NCBI GenBank assembly: GCA_964615415.1
Contig: CAZTNI010000001.1
Coordinates: forward strand, 112,746-176,745
Direction: 5' to 3'
DNA from: an uncultured Candidatus Saccharibacteria bacterium
GTDB lineage: Bacteria; Patescibacteriota; Minisyncoccia; Phycocordibacterales; SBAW01
Length of the DNA: 64,000 nt
The notes below the pieces were generated by a model. That model searched no databases. It worked only from the letters and a program-made list of their open reading frames with translations, and was not told the origin of the DNA. Below are positions 4,221 through 31,367 of the stretch, one piece after another. How positions within the stretch are numbered: position 1 is the stretch's first letter; every line of letters starts with the position of its first letter. Made by a program: the position numbers and the translations under genes.

Positions 4221-4224
4221 CAAT

Positions 4225-12035: not shown

Positions 12036-12074
12036 TATGTTATTCTCGAGTCATACCGGAGGAAATCCTCCAGA

Positions 12075-12148
12075 ACGGGCTGTCGTATACCGGTAGTACG
12101 CTTGCTTTGGGAGCAAGATGACTGGGTTCGATTCCCAGCAGCCCGACC
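12075..12148 (+). tRNA. tRNA-Pro (anticodon TGG), CCA encoded
   Basis: Acceptor CGGGCTG/CAGCCCG, anticodon stem CTTGC/GCAAG with loop TTTGGGA, T-arm CTGGG-TTCGATT-CCCAG, 3' ACCA. Confidence 0.85.
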
Positions 12149-12150
12149 AG

Positions 12151-13023: not shown

Positions 13024-14177
13024 TTGTTAAGCGCAGTAATCAGCTTCTCGCGCTCTCCTGGGGCAACGTTTGTGGCAAAATCAGCCGCTGCCTCTGCTAT
13101 GTCTGTACTCAAAAGTGCTTTAATACCTCCTTTGCCTTCTGCGGCAAGGCTTCGGTTAATATGGCTCAGCATAACGGCACGTAAGTCTCGGTCGCCGGTC
13201 GTTGCACCTGCGGTTGCAGTCGAAATAAGGCTCATAACTCGACTGTCGCTACCGCGTACGACTGCGCCGCCAGAAGCTCCACCTTGCGAAAGTACGGTGC
13301 CGCCAATCGAAATAACATCAATAAAGCCTTTTTCGTCAAAGGTGAACAGTTTTTGCACGACGGTAAATGCTGAAGTGACATATAAATCGCGTTCAATTGA
13401 TGTTCCGTTAAGAAAACCGGCAGGATACCCAGCAAGAAGCACTTCTTCACCGATCTCTGGGTCGTCTGTTGTAAGGCCGACGTTAGGAAAAGAGGCAGGA
13501 AGGGGAGTGTTGAGGTCTGCAGAGGCAGTGATACGGAGGAAGGCGTAGTCGTGTTCTCCGGTACCAAGTGGCCTCTCTGCCTTTAATTGGCTCGCATTCG
13601 CATCGATCCATGCAGGTGGTAGGTAGAGTAGCTCTGCCTTGTACCGTGGCTCTGCGGGCGATCCTGTGCGAATAGTGCATTCTACACTGTTAGGCGTTGG
13701 ATAATCTTTAAGAAGAAAAAATTGGCCTATGTGAGCGTTGGTAAGAATGACTCCACGCGAGTCGACAATGATCCCTGAGCCTGAAATAGAGCCAATACCG
13801 CTTCCGCTCCGGGCAATACACAGAATATTTACAAGTGATGCTCGGGTATTTGCATTTACCGCCTCGTAGTTGATCGCTACCGGCTTAGGAGAAGTGCCAG
13901 AAGCGCTTTGTGTGGCTGTAGAAGGGGAAGAAAGGGGAGTAGAAACCGGTTTTTGAGCCGTAGAGGGTGTTTTTTTAACAGTGCTGGTGGGTATAGATAT
14001 GGCGACGGTGGTGTGTGTAATGGGTAGCTCTACTTCAAGCACCTCTCCTTCTTGAGGTACGTAGGAGGTAAGGGGAGGGAAGTCGATGTGGAGTGCTACA
14101 AGAGCGCTCCCAAGCGCTATAGTAATTGTTATAAATAGTGAGTCGATTGCCCGTAGAAGGGTAGAGAGGACTTCCAT
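13020..14177 (-). CDS. Trypsin-like serine protease (S1 family) with N-terminal TM anchor and S/T/P-rich linker
   Basis: His (TNAHI), Asp (DYAFLRI) and Ser (GGASGGAV) triad spacing typical of the S1/HtrA-like fold. No PDZ domain evident. Confidence 0.7.
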   Translation of the reverse strand: MEVLSTLLRAIDSLFITITIALGSALVALHIDFPPLTSYVPQEGEVLEVELPITHTTVAISIPTSTVKKTPSTAQKPVSTPLSSPSTATQSASGTSPKPVAINYEAVNANTRASLVNILCIARSGSGIGSISGSGIIVDSRGVILTNAHIGQFFLLKDYPTPNSVECTIRTGSPAEPRYKAELLYLPPAWIDANASQLKAERPLGTGEHDYAFLRITASADLNTPLPASFPNVGLTTDDPEIGEEVLLAGYPAGFLNGTSIERDLYVTSAFTVVQKLFTFDEKGFIDVISIGGTVLSQGGASGGAVVRGSDSRVMSLISTATAGATTGDRDLRAVMLSHINRSLAAEGKGGIKALLSTDIAEAAADFATNVAPGEREKLITALNN

Positions 14178-14210
14178 ATTGGTTTAGTATACGGTACGAT
14201 TCGAGCAAAA

Positions 14211-14281
14211 GCGGGATTAGTTTAGTGGTAAAACGACAGTTTTCCAAACTGTAGTTGGGAGTTCGATTCTCCCATCCCGCA
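14211..14281 (+). tRNA. tRNA-Gly (anticodon TCC)
   Basis: Acceptor GCGGGAT/ATCCCGC, D-stem GTTT/AAAC, anticodon stem ACAGT/ACTGT with loop TTTCCAA, T-arm GGGAG-TTCGATT-CTCCC. Confidence 0.85.
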
Positions 14282-14324
14282 CACGTTCATACCGGATTCA
14301 TTACAAGCTGATTAAGTAACGAAC

Positions 14325-15092
14325 ATGACCAGACGAGGTATTGTAGCTGTTGTATTGATTCTTATTGTGCTCATTATTGGCGGGTGGTACTTCTTTATTA
14401 ACCGAGGTCCTGCTATTTCGTATACAGTGATTGAAAGCGGGGATCGCCAACACAAAGAAGAAACGGATTTTTACACCATCCAGATGACCTATCCTGACGA
14501 GACACCTCTTGTAGAACGCGGAGGGTGGGGTGCGGAAAATAGCGCTCAAGATGCTATAGAAGAGCTCTTGCAAGATGAGATGCAGGATTTTAAAAGCATC
14601 GTCGCAGAGAATTTAACAGAGACGGAAAAAGCACGTCTGCAGGAAAACCTTATTAAATATTCTTTGAATGTCGCATACAGGCCGTATTCTTCAGGAGAGT
14701 ATGTGTCGTATGAGTTCGATGTGTTTACCGACACAGGTGGCGCACACCCGAACAACTACTATCGCACGCTCGTTTTCGACCTTGAAGGGCGTACCGTTGC
14801 GCTCGGCGACCTTTTCCAGAGTGGTAGTTCGTACCTTGAACGCATTTCCGAAGAGGCAACGCGCCAAGTAACCGAGCAGATAACACAGCGCGCAGGGGCA
14901 GATGCTGTTGCAACGCTTATGCAAGAAGGTTTGGCACCCCGTGCAGAAAACTTTGAGAACTTTGTGGTAGACAGCGACCGTTTGCGCATCTTTATCCCGC
15001 CGTATCAGGCTGCGGCGTACGCAGTAGGGTCGTTTGAAGTCCAGATTCCGCTCTACGACATCCGCGACATCCTTAAACCAGAGGTTCGTTAA
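14325..15092 (+). CDS. DUF3298/DUF4163-like (RsiV-like) membrane-anchored protein
   Basis: N-terminal TM helix and a C-terminal domain with TDTGGAHP..YY motifs, recalled as characteristic of DUF3298. Confidence 0.55.
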   Translation: MTRRGIVAVVLILIVLIIGGWYFFINRGPAISYTVIESGDRQHKEETDFYTIQMTYPDETPLVERGGWGAENSAQDAIEELLQDEMQDFKSIVAENLTETEKARLQENLIKYSLNVAYRPYSSGEYVSYEFDVFTDTGGAHPNNYYRTLVFDLEGRTVALGDLFQSGSSYLERISEEATRQVTEQITQRAGADAVATLMQEGLAPRAENFENFVVDSDRLRIFIPPYQAAAYAVGSFEVQIPLYDIRDILKPEVR

Positions 15093-15104
15093 TAAGGCCT
15101 TTCT

Positions 15105-15189
15105 CAAAACAGCTTTTTCAAAGGTCCTCGGTTCTCCCGTATCGGGCTCGAAGCCCTCTCGGGCCAGACCTTGTGAAAAAGCTGTTTTG
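15105..15189. repeat. Structured repeat element, copy 1 (long stem enclosing a conserved core)
   Basis: Arms caaaacagctttttcaaaggtc / gaccttgtgaaaaagctgttttg flank the core ctcggttctcccgtatcgggctcgaagccctctcgggcc. A homologous core occurs at 20251-20287. Confidence 0.7.
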
Positions 15190-15204
15190 CTTAGGCCACT
15201 CACA

Positions 15205-15236
15205 CGAAAAAATCCGGCAATTGCCGGATTTTTTCG
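15205..15236. terminator. Bidirectional intrinsic terminator
   Basis: aaaaaatccggcaattgccggatttttt between convergent genes (DUF3298-like gene and hup). Confidence 0.6.
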
Positions 15237-15261
15237 TGTGCACACAATTGAGGTTCTGTTA

Positions 15262-15534
15262 CTATTTAACTGCCTCTTTCAAGGCCTTTGCAGCCTGGAA
15301 CTTAGGCACTCGCATAGATGGAACCTGAACTGATTCACCCGTGCGCGGGTTGCGTGCCGTGCGAGAGGCGCGCATTTTGGTCTTAAAGATGCCCAAACCT
15401 GCAATAGAGACCTCCTCATTCTTTTTGAGGGCTGAAACAATGGTTTCAATCACTGTCTCGACTGCGCGTTCTGCGTCTGCTTTGGTTGTACCAAGGACGC
15501 CATGCACCTTTTCTGCGATATCTTGCTTATTCAT
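15262..15534 (-). CDS. hup: DNA-binding protein HU
   Basis: 90 aa. MNKQDIAEKV...GLGIFKTKMRASRTARNPRTGESVQVP is typical of HU/IHF. Confidence 0.9.
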   Translation of the reverse strand: MNKQDIAEKVHGVLGTTKADAERAVETVIETIVSALKKNEEVSIAGLGIFKTKMRASRTARNPRTGESVQVPSMRVPKFQAAKALKEAVK

Positions 15535-15645
15535 AAGGGTTTATTAACGGGTAAATGAACCGTGTACCCTGTGCTGGTAGTATACGACTGCCAAAAAACC
15601 TTGCAATAGAGCCATGGGGATACATTTTTTTGACAAAAAACAAAA

Positions 15646-17175
15646 TTATCGTGCAAATTCAATGGCACGAGTCTCGCGAATTACCGTAACTTTGATCTCT
15701 CCGGGGTATTTAAGTTCACTTTCAATGCGTACTGCGATGTTTCGTGCGAGTTCTCGAGCTGCAACGTCGGTCATTTCGTCTGGTTTTACGAATACCCGCA
15801 CTTCGCGACCTGCAGAAATGGCATACGATTTCTCAACGCCGGTGAATGAATTAGCGATTCCTTCAATATCTGCAAGGCGTTTTATGTAATTTTCAACACT
15901 GTCACGGCGTGCGCCCGGTCGGCCGCCAGAAATAGCGTCGGCAACCTGCACGATAATAGATTCCGGTGTTTCGTACGGGTATTCCTCGTGGTGCGCCTGC
16001 ATTGCTTTGATGACTTCTTCAGAGACGCCAAATTTAGCGAGCACACGACGGCCAATTTCCACATGCGTTCCTTGTACTTCGTGGTCCAAGGCTTTACCAA
16101 TGTCGTGCAAAAGTGCGCCTGCGCGTGCGACTGCTGGGTTTGCACCAAGTTCTTCCGCGATCATGCCGGCAATGTGCGCCATCTCTACCGAGTGCTGGAG
16201 CACCGACTGACCGTACGATGTGCGGAAGTAGAGGCGACCCAATATCATCAAGAGGCGAGGGTCGAGGTTAAGTACGCCCGCTTCAAATGCTGCGGCTTCA
16301 GCTTTTTCTTTAATGATTTTATTTATTTCACCTTTTGCTTTTTCTACCGTTTCTTCAATCTTTGCGGGTTGAATACGGCCGTCGATGATAAGGTTTTCGA
16401 GTGCAACACGGGCAACTGCGCGGCGAATCGGGTCGTATGAAGAAAGCACGATAGAGCCAGGGGTGTCGTCGATAATAATTTCTACACCCGTTGCACGCTC
16501 AAGAGTTTTAATATTGCGGCCTTCTTTACCGATAATCTTTCCTTTAATATCGTCATTCGGAATCGTTACTGCGGTTGCCATGGTGTCGCTCGCAACTGAA
16601 TTACCAAGGCGATGAATCGCAGTGGTAAGAATTTCCCGTGCACGGCGCTCAAGACGTTCCATACCGTCGCGCTCAAGTTTCTGAATACGCACCATCATAT
16701 CTTCTGCATGTTCGCGCTCTAACTCTGCGTGGAGTTGCTGCAGCGCAGCGTCTTTTGACATGCCTGCCACACGTGCAAGTTCTTCAGCGCGCTGGGAAAG
16801 CATAGCTTCTGCGCGTTCGCGGATCGTTTTTACTTCTTCAATTTTATTTTTAACACGCTCAATTTCTTCATCGAGTTCTGCTTGTTTTTTGTCGAGAGAT
16901 TCCTCACGTTTAAAAATACGGTCCTCTGCCCGGGTAATTTTTTCTTCTTTATCTTTGAGCTCTGCTTCGACAGCAACTGCTTTTTGACGAGCCTCTTCTT
17001 CCGCACCGGAAGTTATGCGGTTTGCTTCTTCTTTAGCAGTGAGGAGAATTTGCTTAACTTCAAGCTCGATAGAGCCTTTGCGTGCAAGAACAAGGAGCCA
17101 CCTAAAGGTGTAACCAATGACCGCTCCAAGAACGCCCGCAAGCGCGAGGAGCAAAAACACTATTTTTAATGACAT
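15646..17175 (-). CDS. rny: Ribonuclease Y
   Basis: N-terminal TM helix, coiled coil, KH domain, HD domain (LLHDIGKA). Confidence 0.9.
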   Translation of the reverse strand: MSLKIVFLLLALAGVLGAVIGYTFRWLLVLARKGSIELEVKQILLTAKEEANRITSGAEEEARQKAVAVEAELKDKEEKITRAEDRIFKREESLDKKQAELDEEIERVKNKIEEVKTIRERAEAMLSQRAEELARVAGMSKDAALQQLHAELEREHAEDMMVRIQKLERDGMERLERRAREILTTAIHRLGNSVASDTMATAVTIPNDDIKGKIIGKEGRNIKTLERATGVEIIIDDTPGSIVLSSYDPIRRAVARVALENLIIDGRIQPAKIEETVEKAKGEINKIIKEKAEAAAFEAGVLNLDPRLLMILGRLYFRTSYGQSVLQHSVEMAHIAGMIAEELGANPAVARAGALLHDIGKALDHEVQGTHVEIGRRVLAKFGVSEEVIKAMQAHHEEYPYETPESIIVQVADAISGGRPGARRDSVENYIKRLADIEGIANSFTGVEKSYAISAGREVRVFVKPDEMTDVAARELARNIAVRIESELKYPGEIKVTVIRETRAIEFAR

Positions 17176-17403
17176 AAAGAGGGGAGAACATAAAAGGTAA
17201 AAGTTGGGTGGAAACAGGAAAATCTGAACACCTCAACAATAGCAGAAAGGATGTCACTACACAACGCGAACTCAGAGTTAGCAAAAGGGCCTCGCCACGA
17301 AGTCTCGCAGGGTACGCATAATTTCTTGCTAGAAATTTGCTCAGCCTCGGCGCCGTCGCGCCTGCGGAGCCCCTGCTCAACTTGTGGTGAGGCCCTTTTT
17401 AAC

Positions 17404-18030
17404 TTATTTTGTCACCTTTGCCTTGTTAACAAAGATTTCGTCTACAACGCCGTACTTCTTAGCCTCTTCAGCCATCATAAAGTAGTCGCGGTCCACGTCT
17501 TTTTCGATCTTTTCAAGTGGTTGACCCGTTGCCTTAGAGAGAATCTTGTTAAGGCGCTCTCTGGTAGCGATGATGTGTTTAGCTGTAATTTCAATGTCGG
17601 TAGCCTGGCCTTGTGCACCGCCCCACGGCTGGTGGATCATCACCTCCGCGTTCGGCAGCGCATAGCGCTTACCCTTAGTGCCAGCTGCCAAGATAACTGC
17701 AGCAGCAGATGCGGCAATACCCACACAGACAGTTGCAACGTCTGGTTTAACAAAGTTCATGGTGTCTAAAATGGCCAAACCAGCAGAAACCGAGCCTCCA
17801 GGGGAGTTTATATAGAGCTGAATGTCCTTCTTTGGGTCCTCAGAAGCCAAGAAAAGGAGCTGAGCAATGACTAAATTGGCTGTATGGTCCTCGATCGGGC
17901 CGCTCAAAAAGACGATTCGTTCTTTAAGGAGACGTGAGTAAATGTCAAAAGCGCGCTCACCATAAGGGGATTTCTCCACCACCATAGGTACGAGCTGGTT
18001 ATATATAGGGTTTTTGTCGTTTGATTGCAT
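17404..18030 (-). CDS. clpP: ATP-dependent Clp protease proteolytic subunit
   Basis: Ser-His-Asp motifs ([16 protein letters not shown]). 208 aa. Confidence 0.95.
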
Positions 18031-22428: not shown

Positions 22429-22758
22429 CTAGTGGCCAAGCAGCAATGGTATCACAAACTCCCGCAGTACTCCGCCCGAAGGGTTGGCAACCTCAAAGTA
22501 AACTGAGACCAAGAATATAATCCCTGACGCAAGGAACAGATACATTGCGAGGAGCGGTGGGCCGACATGCGACACATCATTTCCAGCAAGTCGTGCCTTC
22601 TGGAGTTGCATGCTCTTCCGCATGATGAGGAAGCAAAAGCCAACGAAACAGAGTATTTCCGCAAGGAACAATACCAGGCTTACCCAAAAGACTGTGTTAG
22701 GAGACATCGCTATTCCTCCGGTTTGTGTGAATTCGTCCGCCGTGACTATACCACTCAA
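22429..22758 (-). CDS. Hypothetical membrane protein
   Basis: 109 aa (start may be the internal Met at 22707). Three hydrophobic helices. Confidence 0.4.
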   Translation of the reverse strand: MSGIVTADEFTQTGGIAMSPNTVFWVSLVLFLAEILCFVGFCFLIMRKSMQLQKARLAGNDVSHVGPPLLAMYLFLASGIIFLVSVYFEVANPSGGVLREFVIPLLLGH

Positions 22759-22773
22759 TGTATACTATGGCTA

Positions 22774-24444
22774 ATGCACGTTGATGAACGCGTCCTCGCG
22801 GATTTTCTTATTGATAGCGGACTTATCTCCCGCGGCACGCTTGCTGACGCGCGTTCGCGAGCAAGCGAACAAGGAGAAACGTTTTATGATGCGCTGTTAA
22901 GTGGTGGATTTGTTAGCGGCGACCACTTGCGTCGTGCGGCGGCGCACACACTTGGTGTGCCGTTTGTGATGCTTGAAGAAAGCGACATCGCACCGGAGGC
23001 ACTCGTGCTTATTCCGGAACCGCTTTCGCGTACGCACAACATAGTTGCATTTCGGGTGCACGACACAACTTTGGAAGTGGCGCTCCTGAACCTTGATGAT
23101 CTGAAATTACTCGAGTCGCTCCCTGTTGCAACAAGCTACAAACTCGCGCCGCGACTTACCACCCAACACTCTATAAAAAAGGCTCTGCTTGGCTATCAAA
23201 AGCACCTCAAGGAGAAGTTTGGCTCCTTTGCACAGCACGGCTTCCATGTTGTGGAAGGCCTTATAAAACACGCTATTTATAGTCGTGCAGGCGGCGTGCA
23301 TATAGAACCATCTACGACGGGCTTTCTTATCCGCTACCGCATCGGCGAGATGCTGCACGAAGCTATGCAGCTTCCTGAACACGTTGGCAAACTCCTGGTC
23401 GACCAACTAAAGGCGGCAGCAAAACTATTTCCCGTTGCAAGTGCGCAAGAAGGACACTTTACTATCGAACACGATAATGAAACACACACGGTGCACCTCT
23501 CCACTATGCCGATCCATAAAGGAGAGAAGTTAGTACTTCGTCTCGCAAAACAAGATGTGCATGCAAAAATAGGAAGCTTAGAGTCCCGAGGGTTTCATGG
23601 CGAAGCGCTTGAGGCGTTACACAAAGCCCTCGCGCTGCGTTCTGGACTCATTCTGGTTGCAAGCGAAGACGCAAAACACTTGCAGTCGCTGCTCTATACA
23701 CTCCTTGCTACTGCAGCACATCCGTATCGTGCCCTTGCGAGCGTGGAAGAGGGTGTGACGTTGCATTTGCCACATGTTGCACAGGGGAGCACTACCGTCT
23801 CGAAGCTTTCCTACGCAACACTCTTGCGCACGACGCTGAAACACGACCCGGATGTGGTTATGGTCAGTCGTGTGGATGAAACAGAGGTAGCGCTCCTGGT
23901 AAGCGAGGCTGCATCAAACGGCAAACTGATCATTGCGGGTATAGAAGCTCCGTCCGCGGGCAGGGCTATAGAAAAAATGCGCAACTTCGGTGTTTCACCC
24001 CTCCTTCTAGCGTCAGTAGTAAAAGTCGCAGTTGCTTCAACGATACTACGCAAGCTGTGTCCGCACTGTCGCAGTACGCACCGGCTCTCGCGCGCGGAAG
24101 GCGCCATTTTGGAAGAGCGGGCAGACTTCGGGCGCGTCTTTACTGCATTAAAAGAAGAGGGGGTGATAGACCGCGCCGCAAGCTGGAAAGAACTCGACTT
24201 TTACTGGCCGGAGGGCTGTAGCAAATGCGAGGGGGGATATATGGGCGGGGTAGGGGTAGGAGAGGCCTTGCCTATATCTCAGGTCCAAAAAGAGCTTATT
24301 TTACGAGAGATGTCGGGGGAAGACATGGCAAACCAGGCCCGGGTAGAGGGGGGTCTAAACCTCCCGGAAGACGCCCTTTTTAAGGCTGCGAGGGGGGATA
24401 CCTCTCTAGAAGAGGTGGTAGCCCTTGTGAAACGCCCGAACTAA
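22774..24444 (+). CDS. GspE/PilB-family (type II secretion / type IV pilus ATPase-like) protein with degenerate ATPase motifs
   Basis: N-terminal T2SSE_N/MshEN-like domain (LADFLIDSGLISRGTLADARSRASEQ...) and a C-terminal tetracysteine motif (CPHC...CSKC). The Walker A position reads GLILVASEDAKHLQS instead of GPTGSGKT, Walker B reads DPDVVMVSRVDE, and the His-box reads GKLIIAGIEAPSA. Confidence 0.75.
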   Translation: MHVDERVLADFLIDSGLISRGTLADARSRASEQGETFYDALLSGGFVSGDHLRRAAAHTLGVPFVMLEESDIAPEALVLIPEPLSRTHNIVAFRVHDTTLEVALLNLDDLKLLESLPVATSYKLAPRLTTQHSIKKALLGYQKHLKEKFGSFAQHGFHVVEGLIKHAIYSRAGGVHIEPSTTGFLIRYRIGEMLHEAMQLPEHVGKLLVDQLKAAAKLFPVASAQEGHFTIEHDNETHTVHLSTMPIHKGEKLVLRLAKQDVHAKIGSLESRGFHGEALEALHKALALRSGLILVASEDAKHLQSLLYTLLATAAHPYRALASVEEGVTLHLPHVAQGSTTVSKLSYATLLRTTLKHDPDVVMVSRVDETEVALLVSEAASNGKLIIAGIEAPSAGRAIEKMRNFGVSPLLLASVVKVAVASTILRKLCPHCRSTHRLSRAEGAILEERADFGRVFTALKEEGVIDRAASWKELDFYWPEGCSKCEGGYMGGVGVGEALPISQVQKELILREMSGEDMANQARVEGGLNLPEDALFKAARGDTSLEEVVALVKRPN

Positions 24445-24498
24445 CTAGGTTTTAAGCCAAATATCGGCTCTATAGAGCCATTTTTTATATGGAAATGC

Positions 24499-24527
24499 TT
24501 GACAAAAGCCTCCTTTGGGTGTATACT
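24499..24527 (+). promoter_or_regulatory. Consensus sigma70 promoter (TTGACA-17-TATACT)
   Basis: TTGACA 24499-24504, 17-nt spacer, TATACT 24522-24527. Confidence 0.55.
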
Positions 24528-24573
24528 TAATGGGTAATAGTGTTCCTTCTATATATGTAGCTTCCGGTAGTGC

Positions 24574-24602
24574 TTGACAAAATGCGCCACCTATGATACA
24601 AT
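24574..24602 (+). promoter_or_regulatory. Consensus sigma70 promoter with extended -10 (TTGACA-17-TGaTACAAT)
   Basis: TTGACA 24574-24579, 17-nt spacer, TGaTACAAT ending at 24602. Confidence 0.55.
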
Positions 24603-24731
24603 AGAAAGGTAACAGTGCAGTACGGGTTCGCTTGTACAGCAACAACTCAATAGCAAGACAATCTGAGGAGAGAGTCTTAAGGGAAGTCCAGTCTAGTAAT
24701 AGATAGGGCTCCTTAATCAATCAATTGCTTT

Positions 24732-24776
24732 AAACAAAGGCGATTGGCTCCTCAAACAAGGGCCAGTCGCCTTTGT
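24732..24776 (+). repeat. 16-bp stem hairpin
   Basis: aacaaaggcgattggc ... gccagtcgcctttgtt (one G-U pair), 13-nt loop. Confidence 0.7.
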
Positions 24777-24784
24777 TCGTTAGT

Positions 24785-24848
24785 AGGGACACTTCTGGAG
24801 GTAGGTCAAAAATTTTAAACCAAACCAGCCTGATCTCCAGAAGTGTCC
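24785..24848 (+). repeat. Perfect 14-bp stem hairpin with 34-nt A/T-rich loop
   Basis: ggacacttctggag ... ctccagaagtgtcc. Loop gtaggtcaaaaattttaaaccaaaccagcctgat. Confidence 0.7.
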
Positions 24849-25016
24849 TCGCTACGACAGTATGTGCAGTCGGTGAGTGGAGGATGGGTCTCTGACAACA
24901 AAATAGCGAATTAAGTTCAACAGGAGAAAAACTGTTGCGTAAGCAACGACTCCATATTGTTGTTCTTCTTCGCCGAGCTGACCTCACATAGGTCGGAGCG
25001 GCAAGAAGGATCGCAA

Positions 25017-25262
25017 ATGATCCTGAAGTTCTTTTTCAACCCGCCGCTCAATGCGGCAGAGGAGATTCAGATGAACAAGGCAGAGCGTGCAGTGAAGGTC
25101 CAGCTTGCGCTGGAGCTTCTCAAGAAGACTTCCATTCCGAAGGTCCGGAGAAATCCGGACCTAAACGCCTGGGTCAACACGGCTTCGCAGCTGCTCGGTC
25201 TCCGTGGCGACTCTGCCGCGGACTTCGAGAATGAGCTCGAAGTTGCGTACATTCGCAGCTAG
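25017..25262 (+). CDS. Hypothetical protein
   Basis: 81 aa from the ATG at 25017 (RBS aagga). The ORF track starts at TTG 24957. Confidence 0.3.
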   Translation: MILKFFFNPPLNAAEEIQMNKAERAVKVQLALELLKKTSIPKVRRNPDLNAWVNTASQLLGLRGDSAADFENELEVAYIRS

Positions 25263-25267
25263 GGCTC

Positions 25268-25316
25268 CCGGGCGACGCGAAAACTATCCCGCGTCGTCCA
25301 CCCATTCAAATTTTTG
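25268..25316 (+). terminator. Putative terminator hairpin
   Basis: gggcgacgcg-aaaactatcc-cgcgtcgtcc, then ...atttttgg. The T-run is displaced 8-9 nt, hence weak. Confidence 0.35.
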
Positions 25317-25382
25317 GACAATCGAAAATTTGAACGGGTCGCAATCAGGCGATTCCGAAACCCTCAAGGGGAGGTACGTGTC

Positions 25383-25793
25383 ATGGGCTATAACGAAACC
25401 GGACGCCTCTTCGAGAGGCGAGTAATCGGTGAGTGCACGGTGTCCTACCAAGGTCACCTGTGCTGGAAGGAAGCTGCCGCGCAGGTTCGCAAGAATCAGC
25501 CGAAGCAGCTTCCGAAGAATGCCACGGACCTTCTCGCGGAGGTTCGCCGGCAGACCAAGGCCGATGTGCAGTTCTACACTGCGATCGGCAGCGCCCTGGA
25601 TTACTTTCACGGCGTTGACGGATTCTTTGAGTTTGCGGGCTTTGTGGTGACGATCGACGTTACCAAGAACCCGCACAAGGATTGTGGGAAGGCCAACATG
25701 GTCGTCTGCGAAGACGATCTTGAAGATCTTCCTGCGCTTGCGGGCCGCGTGGTCCGCGAGTTTGTAACGCAAGCGAGGAGAGCAGGAATATAA
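25383..25793 (+). CDS. Hypothetical protein
   Basis: 136 aa from the ATG preceded by RBS aggggagg. GC3-rich codon usage. No family recognised. Confidence 0.45.
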   Translation: MGYNETGRLFERRVIGECTVSYQGHLCWKEAAAQVRKNQPKQLPKNATDLLAEVRRQTKADVQFYTAIGSALDYFHGVDGFFEFAGFVVTIDVTKNPHKDCGKANMVVCEDDLEDLPALAGRVVREFVTQARRAGI

Positions 25794-25795
25794 AA

Positions 25796-26047
25796 ATGAA
25801 AAACCGCAAACCTCGCGCGGCGTTTCTGTTTGAATGCCGACGATGCGGGGGGCAGTACCCCGTCTCCAAAAAGACGGCGGAGCAGTTCCTCTCCAAGGAA
25901 TTGCGAAAAAAGCTCAAACACGCTCTTGGTCATGAAGGAGCTGTGGGAGCCGTTCTAACGTTTAAGAACGGATGTCCCCAGTGCGTCCCGGAAAATCTTG
26001 AGGCAGTAGTTGAGCTTTCGGTCCTAGAGCCGAAACAAACGCACTAA
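25796..26047 (+). CDS. Small zinc-ribbon-like protein (CxxC...CxxC)
   Basis: 83 aa: FECRRCGG...NGCPQC. Confidence 0.4.
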   Translation: MKNRKPRAAFLFECRRCGGQYPVSKKTAEQFLSKELRKKLKHALGHEGAVGAVLTFKNGCPQCVPENLEAVVELSVLEPKQTH

Positions 26048-26395
26048 CGAGGCGAGCAGCAATGCTCGCCTCCTCTATAACCCAGCTGACACCCTGTTGG
26101 CTGGATTTCGAGGAGACTGCCAGACATGATCATGACCGAGGTTCTCATTCTGAACCCCCGCCGCTGCAAGTGCCGCTGGCACCGTTTCAAGACGGTGTAC
26201 TGCCACGAGGCGCCGGCGTTGGCCCAGCTCCTGCGGGAGATGGGCTACCAGGCCAGGCTTCGCCTCGCTTAGTACACAAATGGTTTGGATGGGACGAGCG
26301 CGTAATTGCTCGCCCCACCAATTAAGTTTTTTACACAGGTAGAAAATTTAATTGGTCATCATTCGATGGCTGATTGTTCAAACGGAGGAAGTGTA

Positions 26396-26797
26396 ATGAT
26401 CAAGTTTCTTGGAATTTTGATTCTCGCGCTCAGTGCCAACATGTTCTTCGTCCTCGTGTTCGACCCGCAGGGCATGTCGGCCGAGGGCTACATCCTCGGC
26501 TGGGGCATGACCCTGGCGGCGATTTTCGCTGGCCCGGCGACCTGGCGCATGGCTGGGGGACACGCTCCTGTAGAGGGGTGGGGAGTCGCGTTCCTCGCTA
26601 TCTCCCTCTGCGTCACCGCAATCAGTGTCTACCTGTTCGTGGATGTCGCGATGCTTGCGAGGACTGCCGAGACTGAGGCTTCCATCGTCCTCGGCGTGTT
26701 CGCCGCCATGCTGGCGGGCCTCGGACTGCTCATGGCCCATCTGGCTCAGAAGCTCATGGCGGACAGCATCAACGAGCCCGCCACTTCCAACACGTAA
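26396..26797 (+). CDS. Hypothetical multi-pass membrane protein
   Basis: 133 aa from the ATG at 26396 (RBS ggagg), four hydrophobic helices, strong GC3 bias. Confidence 0.5.
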   Translation: MIKFLGILILALSANMFFVLVFDPQGMSAEGYILGWGMTLAAIFAGPATWRMAGGHAPVEGWGVAFLAISLCVTAISVYLFVDVAMLARTAETEASIVLGVFAAMLAGLGLLMAHLAQKLMADSINEPATSNT

Positions 26798-26884
26798 CGG
26801 CAACAAGCCGTTCAAGAGGCAAGCGTTCGCGCTTGCCTCACTATCTAAGTTCTTATCTCGTCATCAAGACGGATGAGAGTTTAG

Positions 26885-26910
26885 ATAGGACCGCAAATCA
26901 GTTGTGGTCC
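26885..26910 (+). promoter_or_regulatory. Operator-like palindrome ATAGGACCGCAAATCAgTTGTGGTCC
   Basis: GGACC-N13-GGTCC dyad immediately upstream of the RBS/ATG of the 26935 gene. A near-identical copy lies at 27171-27196. Confidence 0.5.
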
Positions 26911-26934
26911 TGAAGTTCAACAAGGAGAGAAGCG

Positions 26935-27102
26935 ATGTGGATTCTTCTTACGCTCGCAGCTTGCGTGTTTGCCTACGCGGGCAAGCATCCGGATACCTTC
27001 GGACTGGCGCATGACGACTCTTTTCTGATGTATGTGATCGCAGTCGTTTTCGTCCTCTGGGCGATCATGGCTGCCATCACCGCTTCCGTACGGAAGTGGT
27101 GA
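26935..27102 (+). CDS. Small hydrophobic protein (55 aa, two predicted helices)
   Basis: MWILLTLAACVFAYAGKHPDTFGLAHDDSFLMYVIAVVFVLWAIMAAITASVRKW. RBS aaggagag 6 nt upstream. Below the ORF-track length cutoff. The opposite-strand ORF 26917-27123 is considered spurious. Confidence 0.4.
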   Translation: MWILLTLAACVFAYAGKHPDTFGLAHDDSFLMYVIAVVFVLWAIMAAITASVRKW

Positions 27103-27170
27103 CCAACCAAGGAGCAAGCGCAAATGCTTGCTCCACTATTTAAGTTTTTCAGTGAATGGAAAATTTAAAT

Positions 27171-27196
27171 AGGACCGCAAATCATTTGTGGTCCGA
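27171..27196 (+). promoter_or_regulatory. Operator-like palindrome ATAGGACCGCAAATCAtTTGTGGTCC (copy 2)
   Basis: Same dyad as 26885-26910, upstream of the 27219 gene. Confidence 0.5.
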
Positions 27197-27218
27197 TGGT
27201 TCAACCAAGGAGAGTGCA

Positions 27219-27560
27219 ATGACTGTTCTGAAGATTGTTGTTCTGTTCATCCTGCAGGCCGTCGCTTTTGTTGCGTATGTGGCGGCGGGGTTTGCTGCTG
27301 TGTTTCTCGTTCTGGCGGCTATCGGGTCTGTCGTTCATCTGATCGGCAACCAGGACCAGATCGACGAGCTGCAGGCATGGCTCGTGTTCTTCGCCTACAT
27401 CGGCGCGTTCGCGGTGATCGCGACCGTCGGGAACTTCCTCGACGCGCTGTTTTCCGCTTGCGATGCCGAGCGCAAGGCGATCATCGTTCGGTGGAAGTAC
27501 GACCGTCAGACGCGGCGGCTCTACCCGAACGCTGGCAAGCCGAGCCTCGACTTCCGCTAA
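27219..27560 (+). CDS. Hypothetical membrane protein
   Basis: 113 aa from the ATG at 27219 (RBS aaggagag), three hydrophobic helices. Confidence 0.5.
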   Translation: MTVLKIVVLFILQAVAFVAYVAAGFAAVFLVLAAIGSVVHLIGNQDQIDELQAWLVFFAYIGAFAVIATVGNFLDALFSACDAERKAIIVRWKYDRQTRRLYPNAGKPSLDFR

Positions 27561-27657
27561 CTACAAGCGGGAGTACAATTGGAGCAAGCTCAAGCAGCTT
27601 GCTCCCTCTACAAAGCTAATAAGCAATCCCGCTTACTAGCTTTCGGAGGGAACGAAG

Positions 27658-27825
27658 ATGATTCTCCAGTACCTTCAGAAGGGTCTTCGTCTGGCCAACG
27701 ACGCCTTCACGGCGTACACGGCCAAAGACCCGAATTACATCGCACTTAAAACTGCGGTGTTCACAGGCGTTCCCATTCTTTGGATGAAGATCCAGGAGTG
27801 GCGACGCAAACTCGCGGCGAAGTAA
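27658..27825 (+). CDS. Small hypothetical protein (55 aa)
   Basis: MILQYLQKGLRLANDAFTAYTAKDPNYIALKTAVFTGVPILWMKIQEWRRKLAAK. RBS ggaggg. Below the ORF-track cutoff. Confidence 0.35.
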   Translation: MILQYLQKGLRLANDAFTAYTAKDPNYIALKTAVFTGVPILWMKIQEWRRKLAAK

Positions 27826-27858
27826 TCTTACGATTCCTTCGCCGCTCCTTCTAAATAT

Positions 27859-28191
27859 TCAATCGATTCCTCTACAAGCGAAAGTTTGTACGGTTGAATG
27901 TTTAGAAGGGGCGATAATATCAACCCTATACAAGGCCGAGGGCGCACAGATTTTTGTTGCGTACAGCTGTTCTCCCGGTAGCACCAGGAGTTCTCGCATG
28001 TCTCGCGAGGTGAAATAACGAGCCCGGTGTTTTCCCCACCGGCCTACCTGCTCCCGCTTTGTGCGGTAAAGGGGTTCAAGAAAAAGGGAGGTGAAGACGA
28101 TGGTTGCGACCGCCTTTAGCGACAGCGACTCGTCTTGCACTAACACAATGTGTTTTGTAGAGCGCGCATTTTGAGCGCAGCTCCAAAGCAC
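27859..28191 (-). CDS. Hypothetical protein
   Basis: 110-aa ORF on the opposite strand inside the island, no recognisable family. Confidence 0.25.
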   Translation of the reverse strand: MLWSCAQNARSTKHIVLVQDESLSLKAVATIVFTSLFLEPLYRTKREQVGRWGKHRARYFTSRDMRELLVLPGEQLYATKICAPSALYRVDIIAPSKHSTVQTFACRGID

Positions 28192-28304
28192 TTTCCGACC
28201 GTTCGTATTGCATGAGTGGTCGGCTTTGTACTGTCTATACTCGAGTGGGCAATTTTTGTTCCCACTCGTTTTTCATGGGTCGCAGAAATGTTTAAACTGC
28301 GGCC

Positions 28305-28365
28305 CCGTTTCAAGATTTTTTCACAAGAAGAAATTTTGAAACGGGGATCGAAAATGTTCCCCTGC
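28305..28365 (+). promoter_or_regulatory. Conserved 5' leader, copy 1 (ccYtttcaagat..ttttgaaaSgggga-tcgaaaATGtt-cccc)
   Basis: About 85% identical to 29075-29135. A hairpin (gggga/tcccc) encloses the ATG of the uORF at 28354-28425 (MFPCVQVQVQPAPIDMGQHRRVE), whose stop overlaps the ATG at 28422. Confidence 0.5.
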
Positions 28366-28421
28366 GTGCAAGTTCAAGTTCAACCCGCTCCCATTGATAT
28401 GGGGCAACACAGGAGAGTGGA

Positions 28422-29033
28422 ATGATTCTCATCAAGGTGACCCCGAAGCAGGACGACATCTTCATCGTCGGCCCGCTCGGCCTCGCCGTGCACATGACCG
28501 CCATCACCCTCGAGGTGGAGGTGGTCATGGTGCCGACGCCGGCGACAGCGCTCGAGATGTACGAGCTGGCTATGCAGGTCAACGCGCTCGGCTTCGGCTG
28601 GGCCGGCGACCTGCTCCTTCGGGAGGCTATTCGCCTCGCGGAGAAGGAGCTCAACGAGTGGTTCACTGCTGCCGCTCTCGACATGGGCGACCTCGACGAG
28701 GCATTCCAGCTCCCGCCGGACCTCGAGGAGATTTACGGCCGCCCGCAGCCGCAGGTGTCGCGTCGTGCGACCAACCCCGGCTACGGCGGCTTCGCCGACA
28801 TGTTCGACGAGATCTTCGGTTCGGCCGATGCCTTCCGCTATCGCGGCGGCCTCGACGCCGGCCAGGATCCGTTCGTCGACGATCGGCCGTTCAACCATCG
28901 CGACTTCGGTCGGGGTCTCGGGCTCGATCACGAGGGTTCTCGGCACTTCGGCGCCGACCTCGCTGCGCGTCTCGCCAACCATGTCGGCTCGTTCGGCAAC
29001 GGCCACTATCGCGGCCACCAGCCGCATCGTTAG
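28422..29033 (+). CDS. Hypothetical protein: structured N-terminal ~100 aa plus G/R/D/F-rich low-complexity C-terminus
   Basis: 203 aa with extreme GC3 bias identifying the frame. The overlapping ORFs 28394-29197 (+) and 28380-29027 (-) are alternative-frame artefacts of the high-GC DNA. Confidence 0.5.
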   Translation: MILIKVTPKQDDIFIVGPLGLAVHMTAITLEVEVVMVPTPATALEMYELAMQVNALGFGWAGDLLLREAIRLAEKELNEWFTAAALDMGDLDEAFQLPPDLEEIYGRPQPQVSRRATNPGYGGFADMFDEIFGSADAFRYRGGLDAGQDPFVDDRPFNHRDFGRGLGLDHEGSRHFGADLAARLANHVGSFGNGHYRGHQPHR

Positions 29034-29074
29034 TACTGTCTACAACATTGGCGAACGCGCTTACGCGTTCGCCA

Positions 29075-29135
29075 CCCTTTCAAGATCTTTTTTCGAAAGA
29101 GATTTTGAAAGGGGATTCGAAAATGTTTCCCTGGA
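29075..29135 (+). promoter_or_regulatory. Conserved 5' leader, copy 2
   Basis: The uORF 29123-29197 (MFPWNVCNRPVGNGANKEEVHEQP) overlaps the downstream ATG at 29184, and the hairpin around its start codon is conserved. Confidence 0.5.
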
Positions 29136-29183
29136 ATGTGTGTAACCGCCCCGTCGGAAATGGGGCAAACAAGGAGGAAGTGC

Positions 29184-29342
29184 ATGAGCAACCGTGACAT
29201 CGAGCGCGTCGCCGCCGCCCGCGGCATCTCGAACAACGCGGCGAAGAAGATGATGCGGCGCCGCAAGGGCGGCACCAAGTCGCCCGCCGTCCCGGTCCGC
29301 GGGATGCCCGTTGCCGGCACCGGCAAGCCCAAGGGCGAATAG
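29184..29342 (+). CDS. Small basic protein (52 aa)
   Basis: MSNRDIERVAAARGISNNAAKKMMRRRKGGTKSPAVPVRGMPVAGTGKPKGE. RBS aaggagga 7 nt upstream. Confidence 0.35.
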   Translation: MSNRDIERVAAARGISNNAAKKMMRRRKGGTKSPAVPVRGMPVAGTGKPKGE

Positions 29343-29463
29343 TCTGATCTTTTCCTGGGCGGACGCAAATGTCCGCCCTCTACTTAAGTTCGCCACGGTG
29401 TATAGTGGTGGTGGACTTAACGGGAGTTCTAACCGCGGAGGAAATCCGCAGAAAGGAGGGAAG

Positions 29464-29658
29464 GTGAGTATTGAAAGGTACTTGTGGACCATCTGGGCGG
29501 TGATCGCTGTTGTGGCGGTTGCTGCTGCGGAGGGCCATTGGGTCATGGTGGCTGTCGTACTTCTGGTCACTGCGCTCATGGCTAAGGCCTTTGGGCCGTG
29601 GCCGCGTCCTTGGAAGCGGCATTCAGTTTCGGAGGTCCGGCATGGACCTGCGGAATGA
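29464..29658 (+). CDS. Small hydrophobic protein (GTG start)
   Basis: RBS aaaggaggg, then GTG. VSIERYLWTIWAVIAVVAVAAAEGHWVMVAVVLLVTALMAKAF... Confidence 0.3.
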   Translation: MSIERYLWTIWAVIAVVAVAAAEGHWVMVAVVLLVTALMAKAFGPWPRPWKRHSVSEVRHGPAE

Positions 29659-29782
29659 GCGGCCTATTCCCGAAGACGAGGAGAATCCGAACCGAGGCAT
29701 GTGGGTATTCGTACTCAGCATGATACTCGGGGTGGCGCTCGTACTTGGGCTCGCTACGTGGCGAGGTGTCCTTGTACTCTGA
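29642..29782 (+). CDS. Small hydrophobic protein (46 aa)
   Basis: MDLRNERPIPEDEENPNRGMWVFVLSMILGVALVLGLATWRGVLVL. RBS ggagg. Overlaps the previous gene by 17 nt. Confidence 0.3.
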   Translation: MDLRNERPIPEDEENPNRGMWVFVLSMILGVALVLGLATWRGVLVL

Positions 29783-29805
29783 TCGTCTGCTTCGGGAGCG
29801 AAAAC

Positions 29806-29838
29806 GGACGAACGCGAAATTATGTCTCGCGTTCGTCC
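29806..29838 (+). terminator. GC hairpin (perfect 12-bp stem) followed by 'ctctattcagtt'
   Basis: ggacgaacgcga-aattatgtc-tcgcgttcgtcc. Confidence 0.45.
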
Positions 29839-30026
29839 ACTCTATTCAGTTCGCCTTATATAAGGTGAACTGATCGAGTCTTTGTAAAACTGTTTCGTAC
29901 TCGGCGTGCCCAGTGTCATGGCAGCAAAAACTCTCTCCTCGAGAAATTTTTCTTCGCTTCTATGATGCTTGGCACGCCGAGTATGTATTTCGGTTTTACT
30001 GTGTAACTGAAACAAAGGAGACTTGA

Positions 30027-30524
30027 ATGTCTGCACCTTCAACACCTGCTCCTGCGAATGCTGGCATGTCGTGGAAGCTGAAGGTTTTGATCGCCGTCGC
30101 CGTCGCCGGGCTCATCGCTTGGTGGGGCATCGACAGCAACCTTCGCTTCGGATTGTGGGGATGGGCGGCTGGTGCCGCCTTCCTCATCACACTGTTCTTC
30201 CTGAGTGGTGTGATCGGTTGGACGATGAAGCACCCGGTCGCTACTCTCATCGGTCTCGTAGCCTTCCTCTACGGAGGCGTCTACCTTTGGCAGACGCTCT
30301 CGGAAGGTCGGCCGCCGTTCGGTAGCTGGATGACGCCCGAAACCCAGGCGAAGTTCGGCGAAACGGGCGAGCTGATGGATCCGTTCAACCTCGCTCTGAT
30401 CCTCGTCGCTGGCGCTGGCGGACTGTTCTTCTTGTGGAAGGCCTGGGAAAATGGCCGCAAGAATCGCGAAGAAGCCAAGAAGAAGAAGGCAGAAGCTGCC
30501 AAACACAAGGGCAGTGGCCACTAG
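30027..30524 (+). CDS. Hypothetical membrane protein with Lys-rich C-terminus
   Basis: 165 aa, four hydrophobic helices. RBS aaaggag. Confidence 0.5.
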   Translation: MSAPSTPAPANAGMSWKLKVLIAVAVAGLIAWWGIDSNLRFGLWGWAAGAAFLITLFFLSGVIGWTMKHPVATLIGLVAFLYGGVYLWQTLSEGRPPFGSWMTPETQAKFGETGELMDPFNLALILVAGAGGLFFLWKAWENGRKNREEAKKKKAEAAKHKGSGH

Positions 30525-30555
30525 TACCTTGCGGCAAGTGCCGCACAACAATATC

Positions 30556-30594
30556 GGGCCCCCGACGCTTCGCGCGTCGGGGGCCTTTTCTGTT
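30556..30594 (+). terminator. Intrinsic terminator (right edge of the high-GC block)
   Basis: gggcccccgacg-cttcgcg-cgtcgggggcc-ttttctgtt. Confidence 0.6.
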
Positions 30595-30599
30595 ATTAT

Positions 30600-31367
30600 G
30601 TGCACATGGCAAAAAAGCGTCTCGTGGTTGGTAACTGGAAAATGTATATTACTTCGCCTGAGGACGCATCAAAGTTTACAGTCGCGCTTCGCCGCAAGGT
30701 GCGCGGAGTCTCCGGTGTCGATGTATTTCTTGCTCCTCCGTTTACTATCCTTCCTAAAGTAGCGGACACACTCAGTAGTTCTCCTATACAGGTCGGCGCG
30801 CAAACTATCTCTGCTTTTATGGACGAAAAGCACACAGGAGATATTTCAGGAGTGATGCTTAAAAAAGCTGGTGCCTCGTTTGTTATTATTGGCCACTCCG
30901 AGCGCCGTTCACTCGGCGAAACGAACGAGCTCGTGCACGACCAAGTACTTCGCGCAGTTGAGTCGGGCCTTACGCCTATTCTTTGTATTGGCGAAAAAGA
31001 ACATGAAGAAGGCGGCGCACATTTTAATTTTATTGAACAGCAACTTTCGTCGGCTCTCAAAGACCTTCCACCAAAAGCTGTAAAGAAATTAATTATTGCC
31101 TACGAACCCGTGTGGGCGATAGGGAAAGCGGCAGCCGATGCTATGAAGCCGCAGGACCTTGAGCAGATGGTTATCTTCATTAAAAAAGTGCTCGCCGACT
31201 CGCTCGACCGCAAGGTGGCGCTCAGCGTGCCGATCCTGTACGGAGGTTCAGTAGAAGCAGAGAATGCGCCGAGTTTGTTGGAAACAGGGATCTCGGGCTT
31301 CCTTGTGGGGCGCGCAAGTACCGACGTTGATTCATTTACGCAGATAATCACTCTATGCAAAAAATAA
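30600..31367 (+). CDS. tpiA: Triosephosphate isomerase
   Basis: VVGNWKM, IIGHSERR, AYEPVWAIG motifs. Confidence 0.95.
   Translation: MHMAKKRLVVGNWKMYITSPEDASKFTVALRRKVRGVSGVDVFLAPPFTILPKVADTLSSSPIQVGAQTISAFMDEKHTGDISGVMLKKAGASFVIIGHSERRSLGETNELVHDQVLRAVESGLTPILCIGEKEHEEGGAHFNFIEQQLSSALKDLPPKAVKKLIIAYEPVWAIGKAAADAMKPQDLEQMVIFIKKVLADSLDRKVALSVPILYGGSVEAENAPSLLETGISGFLVGRASTDVDSFTQIITLCKK

Follow-up and report, generated by a model that had tools for sequence, protein, structure and literature searches.

Repeated hairpin modules between the genes of a hypervariable island in an uncultured Candidate Phyla Radiation bacterium

Structured gaps in an island of small genes

The 64,000 nucleotides (nt) analysed here, positions 112,746 to 176,745 of contig CAZTNI010000001.1 (assembly GCA_964615415.1, deposited as an uncultured Candidatus Saccharibacteria bacterium) and hereafter called the window, contain an island of about 6 kb (24445-30600) between the gene of a PilB-type ATPase (22567-24444) and tpiA (30600). 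Homologues of this PilB place the host in the Parcubacteria/Paceibacterota, within the Candidate Phyla Radiation (CPR). The island genes are small and all on the plus strand, and searches of their proteins against Pfam and PHROGs returned no family. When every gap between 24445 and 30600 was folded as RNA, 11 intergenic gaps showed the same series of hairpins, HpA-HpB(-HpC), here called a module. Compensatory changes preserve the structures of the modules, which are sense-strand specific and occur in islands only; the modules separate nearly all members of an array of same-strand genes that follows a single strong promoter and a conserved leader of about 470 nt. Two of them, E6 and E7, had been taken in a preliminary description, made from the sequence alone, for a duplicated leader in which a short upstream open reading frame (uORF) controls the gene that follows. 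The module looks instead like a previously undescribed RNA element of the sense strand, and not like a uORF switch.

Each module begins after a stop codon and runs in the same order: HpA, a linker of 0-2 nt, HpB, often HpC and HpD, a Shine-Dalgarno sequence (SD) and the next gene's start codon. HpA is a GC-rich, near-perfect hairpin of 8-12 bp lacking a U-tract, whereas HpB is longer, AU-rich and imperfect, with stems of 15-20 bp. The starts of the modules, from near 25270 to near 29806, are listed in Table 1, and the arms of HpB were found independently by an inverted-repeat scan (repeats I3-I6, I11, I13, I14, I23 and I25). Where the preliminary description knew of two copies, the window in fact holds at least seven copies of class I and four variant ones. 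Base composition sets modules and genes apart: the open reading frames (ORFs) of the island have a GC content at third codon positions (GC3) of 0.66-0.94, against 0.44-0.52 in the adjoining host genes, and the modules, with an overall GC content of about 0.4, form with these high-GC3 ORFs a sharp compositional mosaic (25071-30524).

The conservation of HpB was scored over a helix of 17 bp in an alignment (A3) of 16 copies from six loci. Of the cells of this helix, 87.8% are paired, as compared with at most 54% when the 3' partner is slid along; 12 of the 17 pairs change on both sides, and the covariation score of 0.486 stands against 0.198 for shuffled alignments, none of 500 shuffles reaching the observed value. 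Two positions are near-invariant wobbles, namely a G.U at pair 16-66 (14 of 16 copies) and a U.G at pair 21-61 (15 of 16). The resulting signature reads 5'-TYMAAG nn CTT ... GAG n'n' TTT RRA-3', the doublets nn and n'n' covarying, and a loop of 4 to about 40 nt separates the half-sites. In class II, the modules of the relatives L006 and L012 that are orthologous to E1.5 differ in the sequence of the stems and keep the pairing.

A covariance model (CM) built from the 16-copy alignment, R1, gave 18 plus-strand matches of 33-53 bits, all of them within islands and three of them outside the seed. Run over the 64 kb of the window with its filters off, R1 found seven plus-strand matches, all between 25298 and 29116, the best score elsewhere being 21 bits; it had no match in L009, the relative with an empty site. 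A phage origin found no backing: a scan of viral_contigs (IMG/VR) for the HpB signature yielded 120 single chance matches, which R1 scores at no more than 27 bits (874 kb of sequence preselected by motif), and a scan of the same collection for a conserved leader 24-mer yielded none. Nor did Rfam recognise the modules: at the gathering threshold the window contains tRNAs only, and at E<=1 the interval 24400-30700 has three matches, all at chance level. A dispersed repeat of the repetitive extragenic palindromic (REP) or bacterial interspersed mosaic element (BIME) kind, or a miniature inverted-repeat transposable element, was rejected on two grounds, all matches in the 64 kb of the genome that were covered falling within 25298-29116 and the copies being diverged and covarying.

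The arms of HpB are AT-rich, partly conserved in sequence, palindromic (TTCAAG...TTTGAA) and placed upstream of genes, as would befit a duplicated promoter or operator, in which the palindrome serves as a double-stranded DNA site for a dimeric regulator or as an unconventional promoter; a terminator-like site before E6 moreover implies either some promoter downstream of it or read-through. Such a reading is nonetheless very improbable. No pair of -35 and -10 elements, at the hexamer spacing of 16-18 nt of a sigma-70 promoter, was found in any module by the promoter scan, nor by eye in the HpB arms; a palindromic operator would have half-sites at a fixed spacing, and a dimer bound to duplex DNA could not accommodate distances between them of 4 to about 40 nt; the stems of HpB covary rather than hold one sequence; and the palindrome is interrupted strand-specifically by the conserved wobbles G.U and U.G.

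R1 scores are some 20-25 bits lower on the minus strand, the sense RNA is the more stable one in 25 of 30 modules (mean difference -6.1 kcal/mol), and the advantage of the sense strand persists after a shuffle-based correction for composition (-4.6 kcal/mol, p 1.4e-6). Folded as sense RNA, the modules contain 94 G.U pairs; folded as antisense RNA, they contain 37. The bias of the folds, together with the excess of G.U pairs, argues for a structure of the sense strand that is most likely formed by RNA.

Two further sequence details of the modules and leaders may be mentioned. The motif GTTCAAC, or TTCAAC, recurs directly 5' of the SD in many leaders of the window and of L006 and L007 (for instance at 24914-24920, 26915-26921, 27199-27205 and 28377-28383); its TTCAA is also that of the 5' arm of HpB, and a pairing with the 3' arm (TTTGAA) is conceivable. 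In some copies the apex of HpB has a conserved insert, CTTGATT-(inner hairpin)-GTCGAATGGAG, in which opposed GA dinucleotides might form tandem sheared G.A pairs; it is present in L007 (12434-12502, 12563-12634 and 12904-12972) and in L015 (6503-6568), and may be compared with 27843-27913 of the window. A kink-turn at this GA/GA insert was considered and dropped, the order of bulge and GA pairs being off consensus.

Table 1. Coordinates of the island's signals, modules and leader components in the window
Feature	Positions	Strand	Remarks
Sigma-70-type promoter, strong	24574-24602	+	TTGACA-17-TACAAT with TG; head of island; sole good match directed at the island's genes
Non-coding island leader, conserved	24603-25070	+	about 470 nt; its last part, ahead of the first gene, is an HpC/HpD pair
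E1	25270-25351	+	HpA 25270-25299, HpB 25300-25339, HpC 25340-25351; CM match 25298-25341, 49.7 bits; upstream of the gene of P0001 (136 amino acids, aa)
E1.5, class II	26049-26115	+	HpA 26049-26072, HpB-II 26073-26115; upstream of a 48-aa ORF (26126)
E2	26291-26356	+	HpA 26291-26316, HpB 26317-26356; CM 46.4 bits
E3	26816-26910	+	HpA 26816-26839, HpB 26842-26887 (CM 39.4 bits), HpC 26888-26910
E4	27111-27194	+	HpA 27111-27134, HpB 27137-27171 (CM 45.9 bits), HpC 27172-27194 (loop without ATG)
E5, class II	27581-27648	+	HpA 27581-27605, HpB-II 27606-27648
E5b	27814-27913	+	HpA 27814-27845, HpB with apical insert 27843-27913; CM 33.1 bits; outside the seed alignment
E6 HpA	28278-28304	+	GC hairpin, no T-run after it; -11.8 kcal/mol, z -3.8; not terminator-like in the scan
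E6 HpB	28303-28346	+	20-bp hairpin, CCCCGTTTCAAGATTTTTTC / GAAGAAATTTTGAAACGGGG; main conserved structure; -28.9 kcal/mol, z -9.1; CM 47.5 bits
E6 HpC	28343-28362	+	GGGGA/TCCCC; 5' arm overlaps the 3' base of HpB; in isolation -8.8 kcal/mol, z -2.5; absent from the minimum-free-energy (MFE) fold of the full leader
E6 uORF	28354-28425	+	23 aa, MFPCVQ...; stop overlaps the main ATG (ATGA); judged incidental
E6 HpD	28387-28405	+	
E6 SD	28411-28415	+	AGGAG; ahead of start 28422
E7 HpA	29049-29074	+	-19.9 kcal/mol, z -4.9
E7 HpB	29075-29113	+	CCCTTTCAAGATCTTTTT / AAAGAGATTTTGAAAGGG; -22.8 kcal/mol, z -5.2; CM 49.7 bits
E7 HpC	29111-29132	+	overlaps the base of HpB; in isolation -7.4 kcal/mol, z -1.9
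E7 uORF	29123-29197	+	24 aa; 14-nt overlap with the main ORF; relative frame differs from that of the E6 uORF; judged incidental
E7 HpD	29148-29166	+	
E7 SD	29173-29177	+	GGAGG; ahead of start 29184
E8, class II	29357-29420	+	HpA 29357-29378, HpB-II 29384-29420
E9, class II	29806-29879	+	HpA 29806-29838, HpB-II 29839-29879
Canonical intrinsic terminator	30556-30590	+	13-bp GC stem, then T-run; closes the island just before tpiA

The two similar leaders and their upstream reading frames

E6 and E7 precede the genes of a 203-aa protein (28422-29033) and of a 52-aa protein (29184-29342). The two proteins have no blastp match to each other even at E<=100, and the larger one is an orphan, with no homologue among 5.8 billion proteins. 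Their leaders, on the other hand, are similar to the degree first reported: 28305-28364 aligns with 29075-29133 over 60 nt and is 81.7% identical to it (E 2e-10 in a comparison with the whole window), with a gapless core of 37 nt that is 86% identical (repeat family D13), and from the hairpin to the start codon the two leaders agree in 93 of 110 ungapped columns (85%). The alignment of the two leaders is interrupted by about 12 short insertions or deletions, most of which are not multiples of three. What the preliminary description said of the general plan is therefore borne out, namely that a similar leader of about 85% identity stands ahead of unrelated genes, that a GC hairpin heads each copy and that each carries a uORF starting with ATG. 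So is its view of a dedicated and reused cis element, conserved as nucleotide sequence and structure and not as peptide. Since further copies exist, as described above, the alternative which it had named itself, a recent local duplication of one promoter with no further copies, does not apply.

The structure at the centre of the two leaders had, by contrast, been overlooked. The bulk of the block reported as 85% identical consists of the two arms of a long inverted repeat, HpB, which the inverted-repeat scan places at 28303-28322 and 28327-28346 in E6 (20 nt, 90% complementary) and at 29075-29092 and 29096-29113 in E7 (18 nt, 89% complementary). The small gggga/tcccc hairpin that had been thought to hold the uORF start in its loop corresponds to HpC, the G-run of which doubles as the 3' base of HpB in both leaders. 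It does fold in isolation, as described, but it is absent from folds of the whole leader, and there the AUG of the uORF is unpaired.

According to the initial model, in which the start of the uORF lies in the small hairpin, either coupled translation or melting of this hairpin would control the downstream gene. Several features are in keeping with it: both uORFs have 23-24 codons and end at or within the main start, a GGGGA run 6-7 nt 5' of their ATG could serve as a weak SD, in the MFE fold of the full E6 leader (a fold of low frequency) the C-run past the start of the uORF forms a weak pairing with the region of the SD, and short ORFs that relieve hairpin barriers are known from integron attI and attC regions (PMC8876359). 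The model is highly improbable all the same, for the long uORF is limited to E6 and E7, the most similar copies, whereas E1 and L011b have no ATG in the leader at all and the equivalent of the loop in E3 and E4 reads CGCAAATCA, again with no ATG. The two uORFs stand in different frames relative to their main ORFs, their peptides share nothing beyond MFP, and the insertions and deletions between the leaders preserve no reading frame. The small hairpin competes with the 20-bp HpB and loses, and the main ORFs of E6 and E7 each have a good SD of their own.

The SD, in turn, never lies within HpA, HpB or HpC, and its probability of being unpaired ranges from 0.04 to 0.61 among the modules, with no pattern. 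A leader-peptide attenuator of the ermC/cat type would have a leader ORF with an SD conserved in all members and a main SD or start masked in an alternative structure, and neither was found among the modules; an RNA thermometer of the ROSE or fourU type would pair the SD within a weak hairpin that melts on heating, and the conserved hairpins are very stable, at -12 to -29 kcal/mol, are located upstream of the SD and are not paired to it. With no conserved hairpin on the SD and no pattern in its accessibility, both the translational attenuator and the thermometer of the preliminary description are left unsupported. The loop of HpC is semi-conserved, reading GGATCGCAAATGATCC in E0 and L006, GGACCGCAAATCA in E3 and E4 (the whole loop of E3, CGCAAATCAG, is devoid of ATG) and TCGCAATCAGGCGA in E1 and L013a, and the uORFs of E6 and E7 are regarded as by-products of the conserved loop sequence CGAAAATG.

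The island head, its terminators and its relatives

In the promoter scan, strong sigma-70 matches are confined to the head of the island (24499-24527 and 24574-24602), and the second of them is kept in L006, L007, L011, L013 and L015. The leader behind it, kept across at least six related islands, includes an invariant 28-mer, GTCCTCGCTACGACAGTATGTGCAGTCG (24846-24873), and a covarying hairpin precedes the first gene. It has no match in Rfam and could be either a non-coding RNA or a leader for processive antitermination. RNase P RNA, an identity prompted by a block resembling GAGGAGAAAGUC, found no backing in Rfam and was discarded.

A stable GC hairpin, HpA, directly follows each stop codon, the long and highly conserved leader comes after the only strong promoter, and a true terminator-like hairpin with a run of five T (T5) does occur inside the island, at 28242-28273, just 5' of E6. 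These features invite a scheme of leaky terminators, in which HpA, alone or with the U-rich 5' arm of HpB, would attenuate transcription behind every gene and the leader would load a processive antitermination factor, making the expression of distal genes conditional. The scheme is improbable, however. An intrinsic terminator is a GC hairpin followed by a U-tract, and no such tract follows any HpA, the next 8 nt being C-rich (CCACCC, CTCACT); none of them passes the terminator scan, while the host's own terminators show clear T-runs. Antitermination would, furthermore, leave unexplained the sequence conservation and the wobble pairs of HpB.

The terminator-like hairpin at 28242-28273 lies in a stretch of about 360 nt (27914-28275) which has no convincing gene, the only possible ORF being one of 24 aa at 28100, and which contains another hairpin at 28195-28223; the stretch may represent the remains of a cassette that includes a terminator. 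An ORF on the minus strand, 27859-28191, was rejected as a gene, its GC3 being 0.53 as against 0.66-0.94 in the genes of the island. Far from the island, two canonical terminator hairpins with T-runs, 4217-4261 and 4808-4852, are 45 nt long, 91% identical and 591 nt apart, and a weaker third copy is found at 47201 (repeat family D1).

The pilB-tpiA junction is a hypervariable insertion site. In L009 (GCA_040384205.1) pilB directly adjoins tpiA across a gap of 22 nt (11659-11681), and in L007 the same site is occupied by a different island of small genes, again of about 6 kb (11672-17645), with modules of the same kind. The head of the island is common to L006, the relative at 65% in PilB, and to the four metagenome contigs L011-L014, which were retrieved with a 22-mer from the conserved island leader; a similar island is located at another position in L015. 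A PilB scan of genome contigs returned, among the matches listed, only an unrelated locus of Clostridia. HpA-HpB(-HpC) modules are present in the islands of all these relatives (L006, L007, L011-L014 and L015), and what the islands share at the nucleotide level is concentrated in leader and modules rather than in genes. One leader subtype heads unrelated genes in different genomes (E1 of the window and L013a). Conversely, homologues of P0001 carry differing leaders or none, and distant ones in other CPR genomes (L016-L019) have a sigma-70 promoter of their own and no modules, which indicates that the modules are lineage-specific and not tied to P0001.

The cargo of other islands includes a HicB antitoxin in L007 and an ORF resembling a DnaQ-like exonuclease in L014. 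Also in L007, two complete HpA-HpB modules stand in tandem at 12400-12673 with no ORF between them, in the manner of an empty cassette, and a second copy of the HpB at 12438-12501, 98% identical, lies at 12908-12971. A breakpoint between L011 and L012 that falls inside HpC was examined as a site-specific junction and rejected, because the sequence of L011 runs on inside an ORF, which makes an illegitimate deletion the likelier origin.

A locus so variable, with an empty site in one relative and identical module types flanking unrelated genes, raises the question of recombination at the DNA level. HpA, HpB and HpC could be sites that are recombined as single-stranded DNA (ssDNA) or as cruciforms, in functional analogy to the attC sites of integrons, some enzyme using them to insert, delete and shuffle promoterless genes behind the island promoter; one candidate would be the conserved P0001 protein, which weakly resembles PD-(D/E)xK nucleases and Holliday-junction resolvases. 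The compositional mosaic would suit foreign ORFs inserted between native joints. As in attC, a conserved structure goes with a loop of variable length (4 to 40 nt), and by eye the outer stem of HpB, ATTCAAG...TTTGAAT, matches RYYYAAC...GTTRRRY at six of seven positions per arm. A comparable hypervariable island, devoid of an integrase and keeping one nickase gene, has been described (PMC8545432).

Recombination joints are nevertheless unlikely. The invariant triplets of attC, AAC and GTT, read AAG and TTT in all 16 HpB copies (column 66 is T throughout), and the 17-bp helix is continuous, with no conserved extrahelical base or bulge. Of the genes annotated within 10 kb on either side of the islands, on the window's contig and in L006, L007 and L015, none is an integrase or transposase. 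The favoured strand is the sense (top) one, whereas attC recombines through the bottom strand, and the similarity of E6 and E7 runs through the SD to the start codon, which fits a conserved leader better than a hairpin joint. The fold matches of P0001 are weak, Foldseek gave nothing significant, and its homologues occur without modules as well. Finally, the sole breakpoint seen at the level of strains, that of L011 versus L012, has the look of an illegitimate deletion into a gene.

The two kinds of role could also be combined, in a cassette platform independent of an integrase, where a promoter and a leader would serve foreign ORFs bracketed by joints that act both as RNA punctuation and as capture sites, the enzyme being perhaps P0001. 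This combination is held to be decidedly unlikely. If true, a CPR lineage would possess the functional counterpart of an integron that lacks an integrase; and modules that are recombination joints as well would provide a new route of gene-cassette capture.

Proposed RNA punctuation and its nearest analogues

Given a same-strand array behind a single promoter and a structure that is probably formed by RNA, the account given a somewhat better than even chance is that the modules serve as intercistronic RNA punctuation, whether in processing, in stability or in insulation, in a cassette-like array with one promoter. They would act inside a polycistronic mRNA, in which HpA may protect the 3' end of the upstream cistron and insulate against ribosomes running on. 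HpB, with its fixed wobbles and together with HpC, might be a hairpin recognised by a factor or a nuclease. It would then be processed, or define, protect and insulate the 5' end of the cistron downstream, or both. A standard leader that does not depend on its context could make any inserted or shuffled ORF expressible, and the shared modules may also supply homology for gene exchange.

Several points weigh against RNA punctuation. The role at the level of RNA is inferred from the strand asymmetry and the wobble pairs only, and a hairpin of top-strand ssDNA would also fit, G.T being the least destabilising mismatch in ssDNA. The copies come from few related lineages, and the shared ancestry of paralogues inflates the shuffle statistics. 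Linkers of 0-2 nt leave no obvious single-stranded site for a cleavage of the RNase E/Y type, and no candidate factor for binding or processing the modules emerged. Lastly, if the island promoter serves the genes behind E6 and E7, their expression needs read-through of the terminator-like hairpin at 28242-28273, or else a promoter that escaped recognition.

Should RNA punctuation be true, the modules would represent a new structured RNA motif with clear covariation, and a natural, portable insulator and leader; they would also show by what means such organisms bring genes gained by horizontal transfer to expression from a single promoter. The genomes of CPR bacteria are tiny and have few recognisable regulators or enzymes of mobile elements, and still this locus turns over small orphan genes under a strict structured 'grammar'. 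Whether RNA or DNA is the level of action, the covariance model may be used as a handle for locating, in uncultured Paceibacteria, islands of this kind together with the small membrane proteins that they carry.

Intergenic hairpins with a bearing on mRNA are known from several systems. REP/BIME and Correia-type elements are co-transcribed, imperfect intergenic palindromes that can affect the stability of mRNA, and they are near-identical and spread genome-wide. The modules resemble them in being intergenic imperfect palindromes but differ in that the copies all sit in one island of 6 kb and have diverged with compensatory changes. In early operons of phages, RNase III sites such as R0.3-R1.3 of T7 and the 5' stabiliser of SP82 are long imperfect hairpins between cistrons, and the stem-loops are left behind as protective ends; such a site calls for about 20 bp or more of double-stranded RNA. 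Along the same line, the stems of HpB, 15-20 bp long, lie between same-strand genes with no internal promoter, and they too are long, imperfect and placed between cistrons of what would be a polycistronic transcript. Unlike RNase III sites, HpB has a sequence signature and fixed wobbles, and a tandem HpA-HpB-HpC with linkers of 0-2 nt has not been described for them.

The likeness to arrays of integron attC sites, including clusters of attC sites lacking integrases (CALINs), is one of architecture. There, as in the island, promoterless and mostly orphan genes in the same orientation follow one promoter, the array differs between relatives, and each gene is followed by an imperfect palindrome that is conserved in structure and variable in sequence and length. 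Hairpins of attC also act in the mRNA, on the translation of the next cassette (PMC8876359). The modules depart from this class in having AAG...TTT for AAC...GTT in 16 of 16 copies, hence no core sites, and neither extrahelical bases nor a central spacer; no IntI is encoded within 10 kb (an adjacent IntI is not required for a CALIN), the sense strand is the favoured one, and the similarity of the copies reaches through the 5' untranslated region to the start codon.

The start-associated and extended start-associated sequences (SAS/ESAS) of Cluster K mycobacteriophages are repeats found in one orientation upstream of many unrelated small genes, the ESAS consisting of imperfect inverted repeats of 17 bp with a spacer of 4-13 bp just upstream of the conserved start sequence (PMC3203893). 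Their function is unknown, and a role in the initiation of translation has been suspected (Pope et al. 2011, PMC3203893). This architecture is analogous only: the SAS 13-mer GGGATAGGAGCCC is absent from the island, two matches with two mismatches elsewhere being at chance level, and the modules belong to a bacterial chromosomal island and not to a phage, always have a GC hairpin upstream, after the stop codon, and show compensatory changes, fixed wobbles and longer arms (15-20 bp).

The islands of acrIIA22 in Clostridia CAG-217 are likewise composed of small orphan ORFs between host genes, with high turnover and no integrase or transposase (PMC8545432), and share with the present island the presence of one conserved gene with possible nuclease activity. 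They belong to a different phylum and encode different proteins, and their description makes no mention of repeated intergenic hairpins, the words 'hairpin' and 'intergenic' both being absent from it (PMC8545432). By analogy, SAS/ESAS, attC arrays, phage RNase III sites and islands of the acrIIA22 type appear to be the nearest relatives in design of the modules, which seem to belong to none of these classes.

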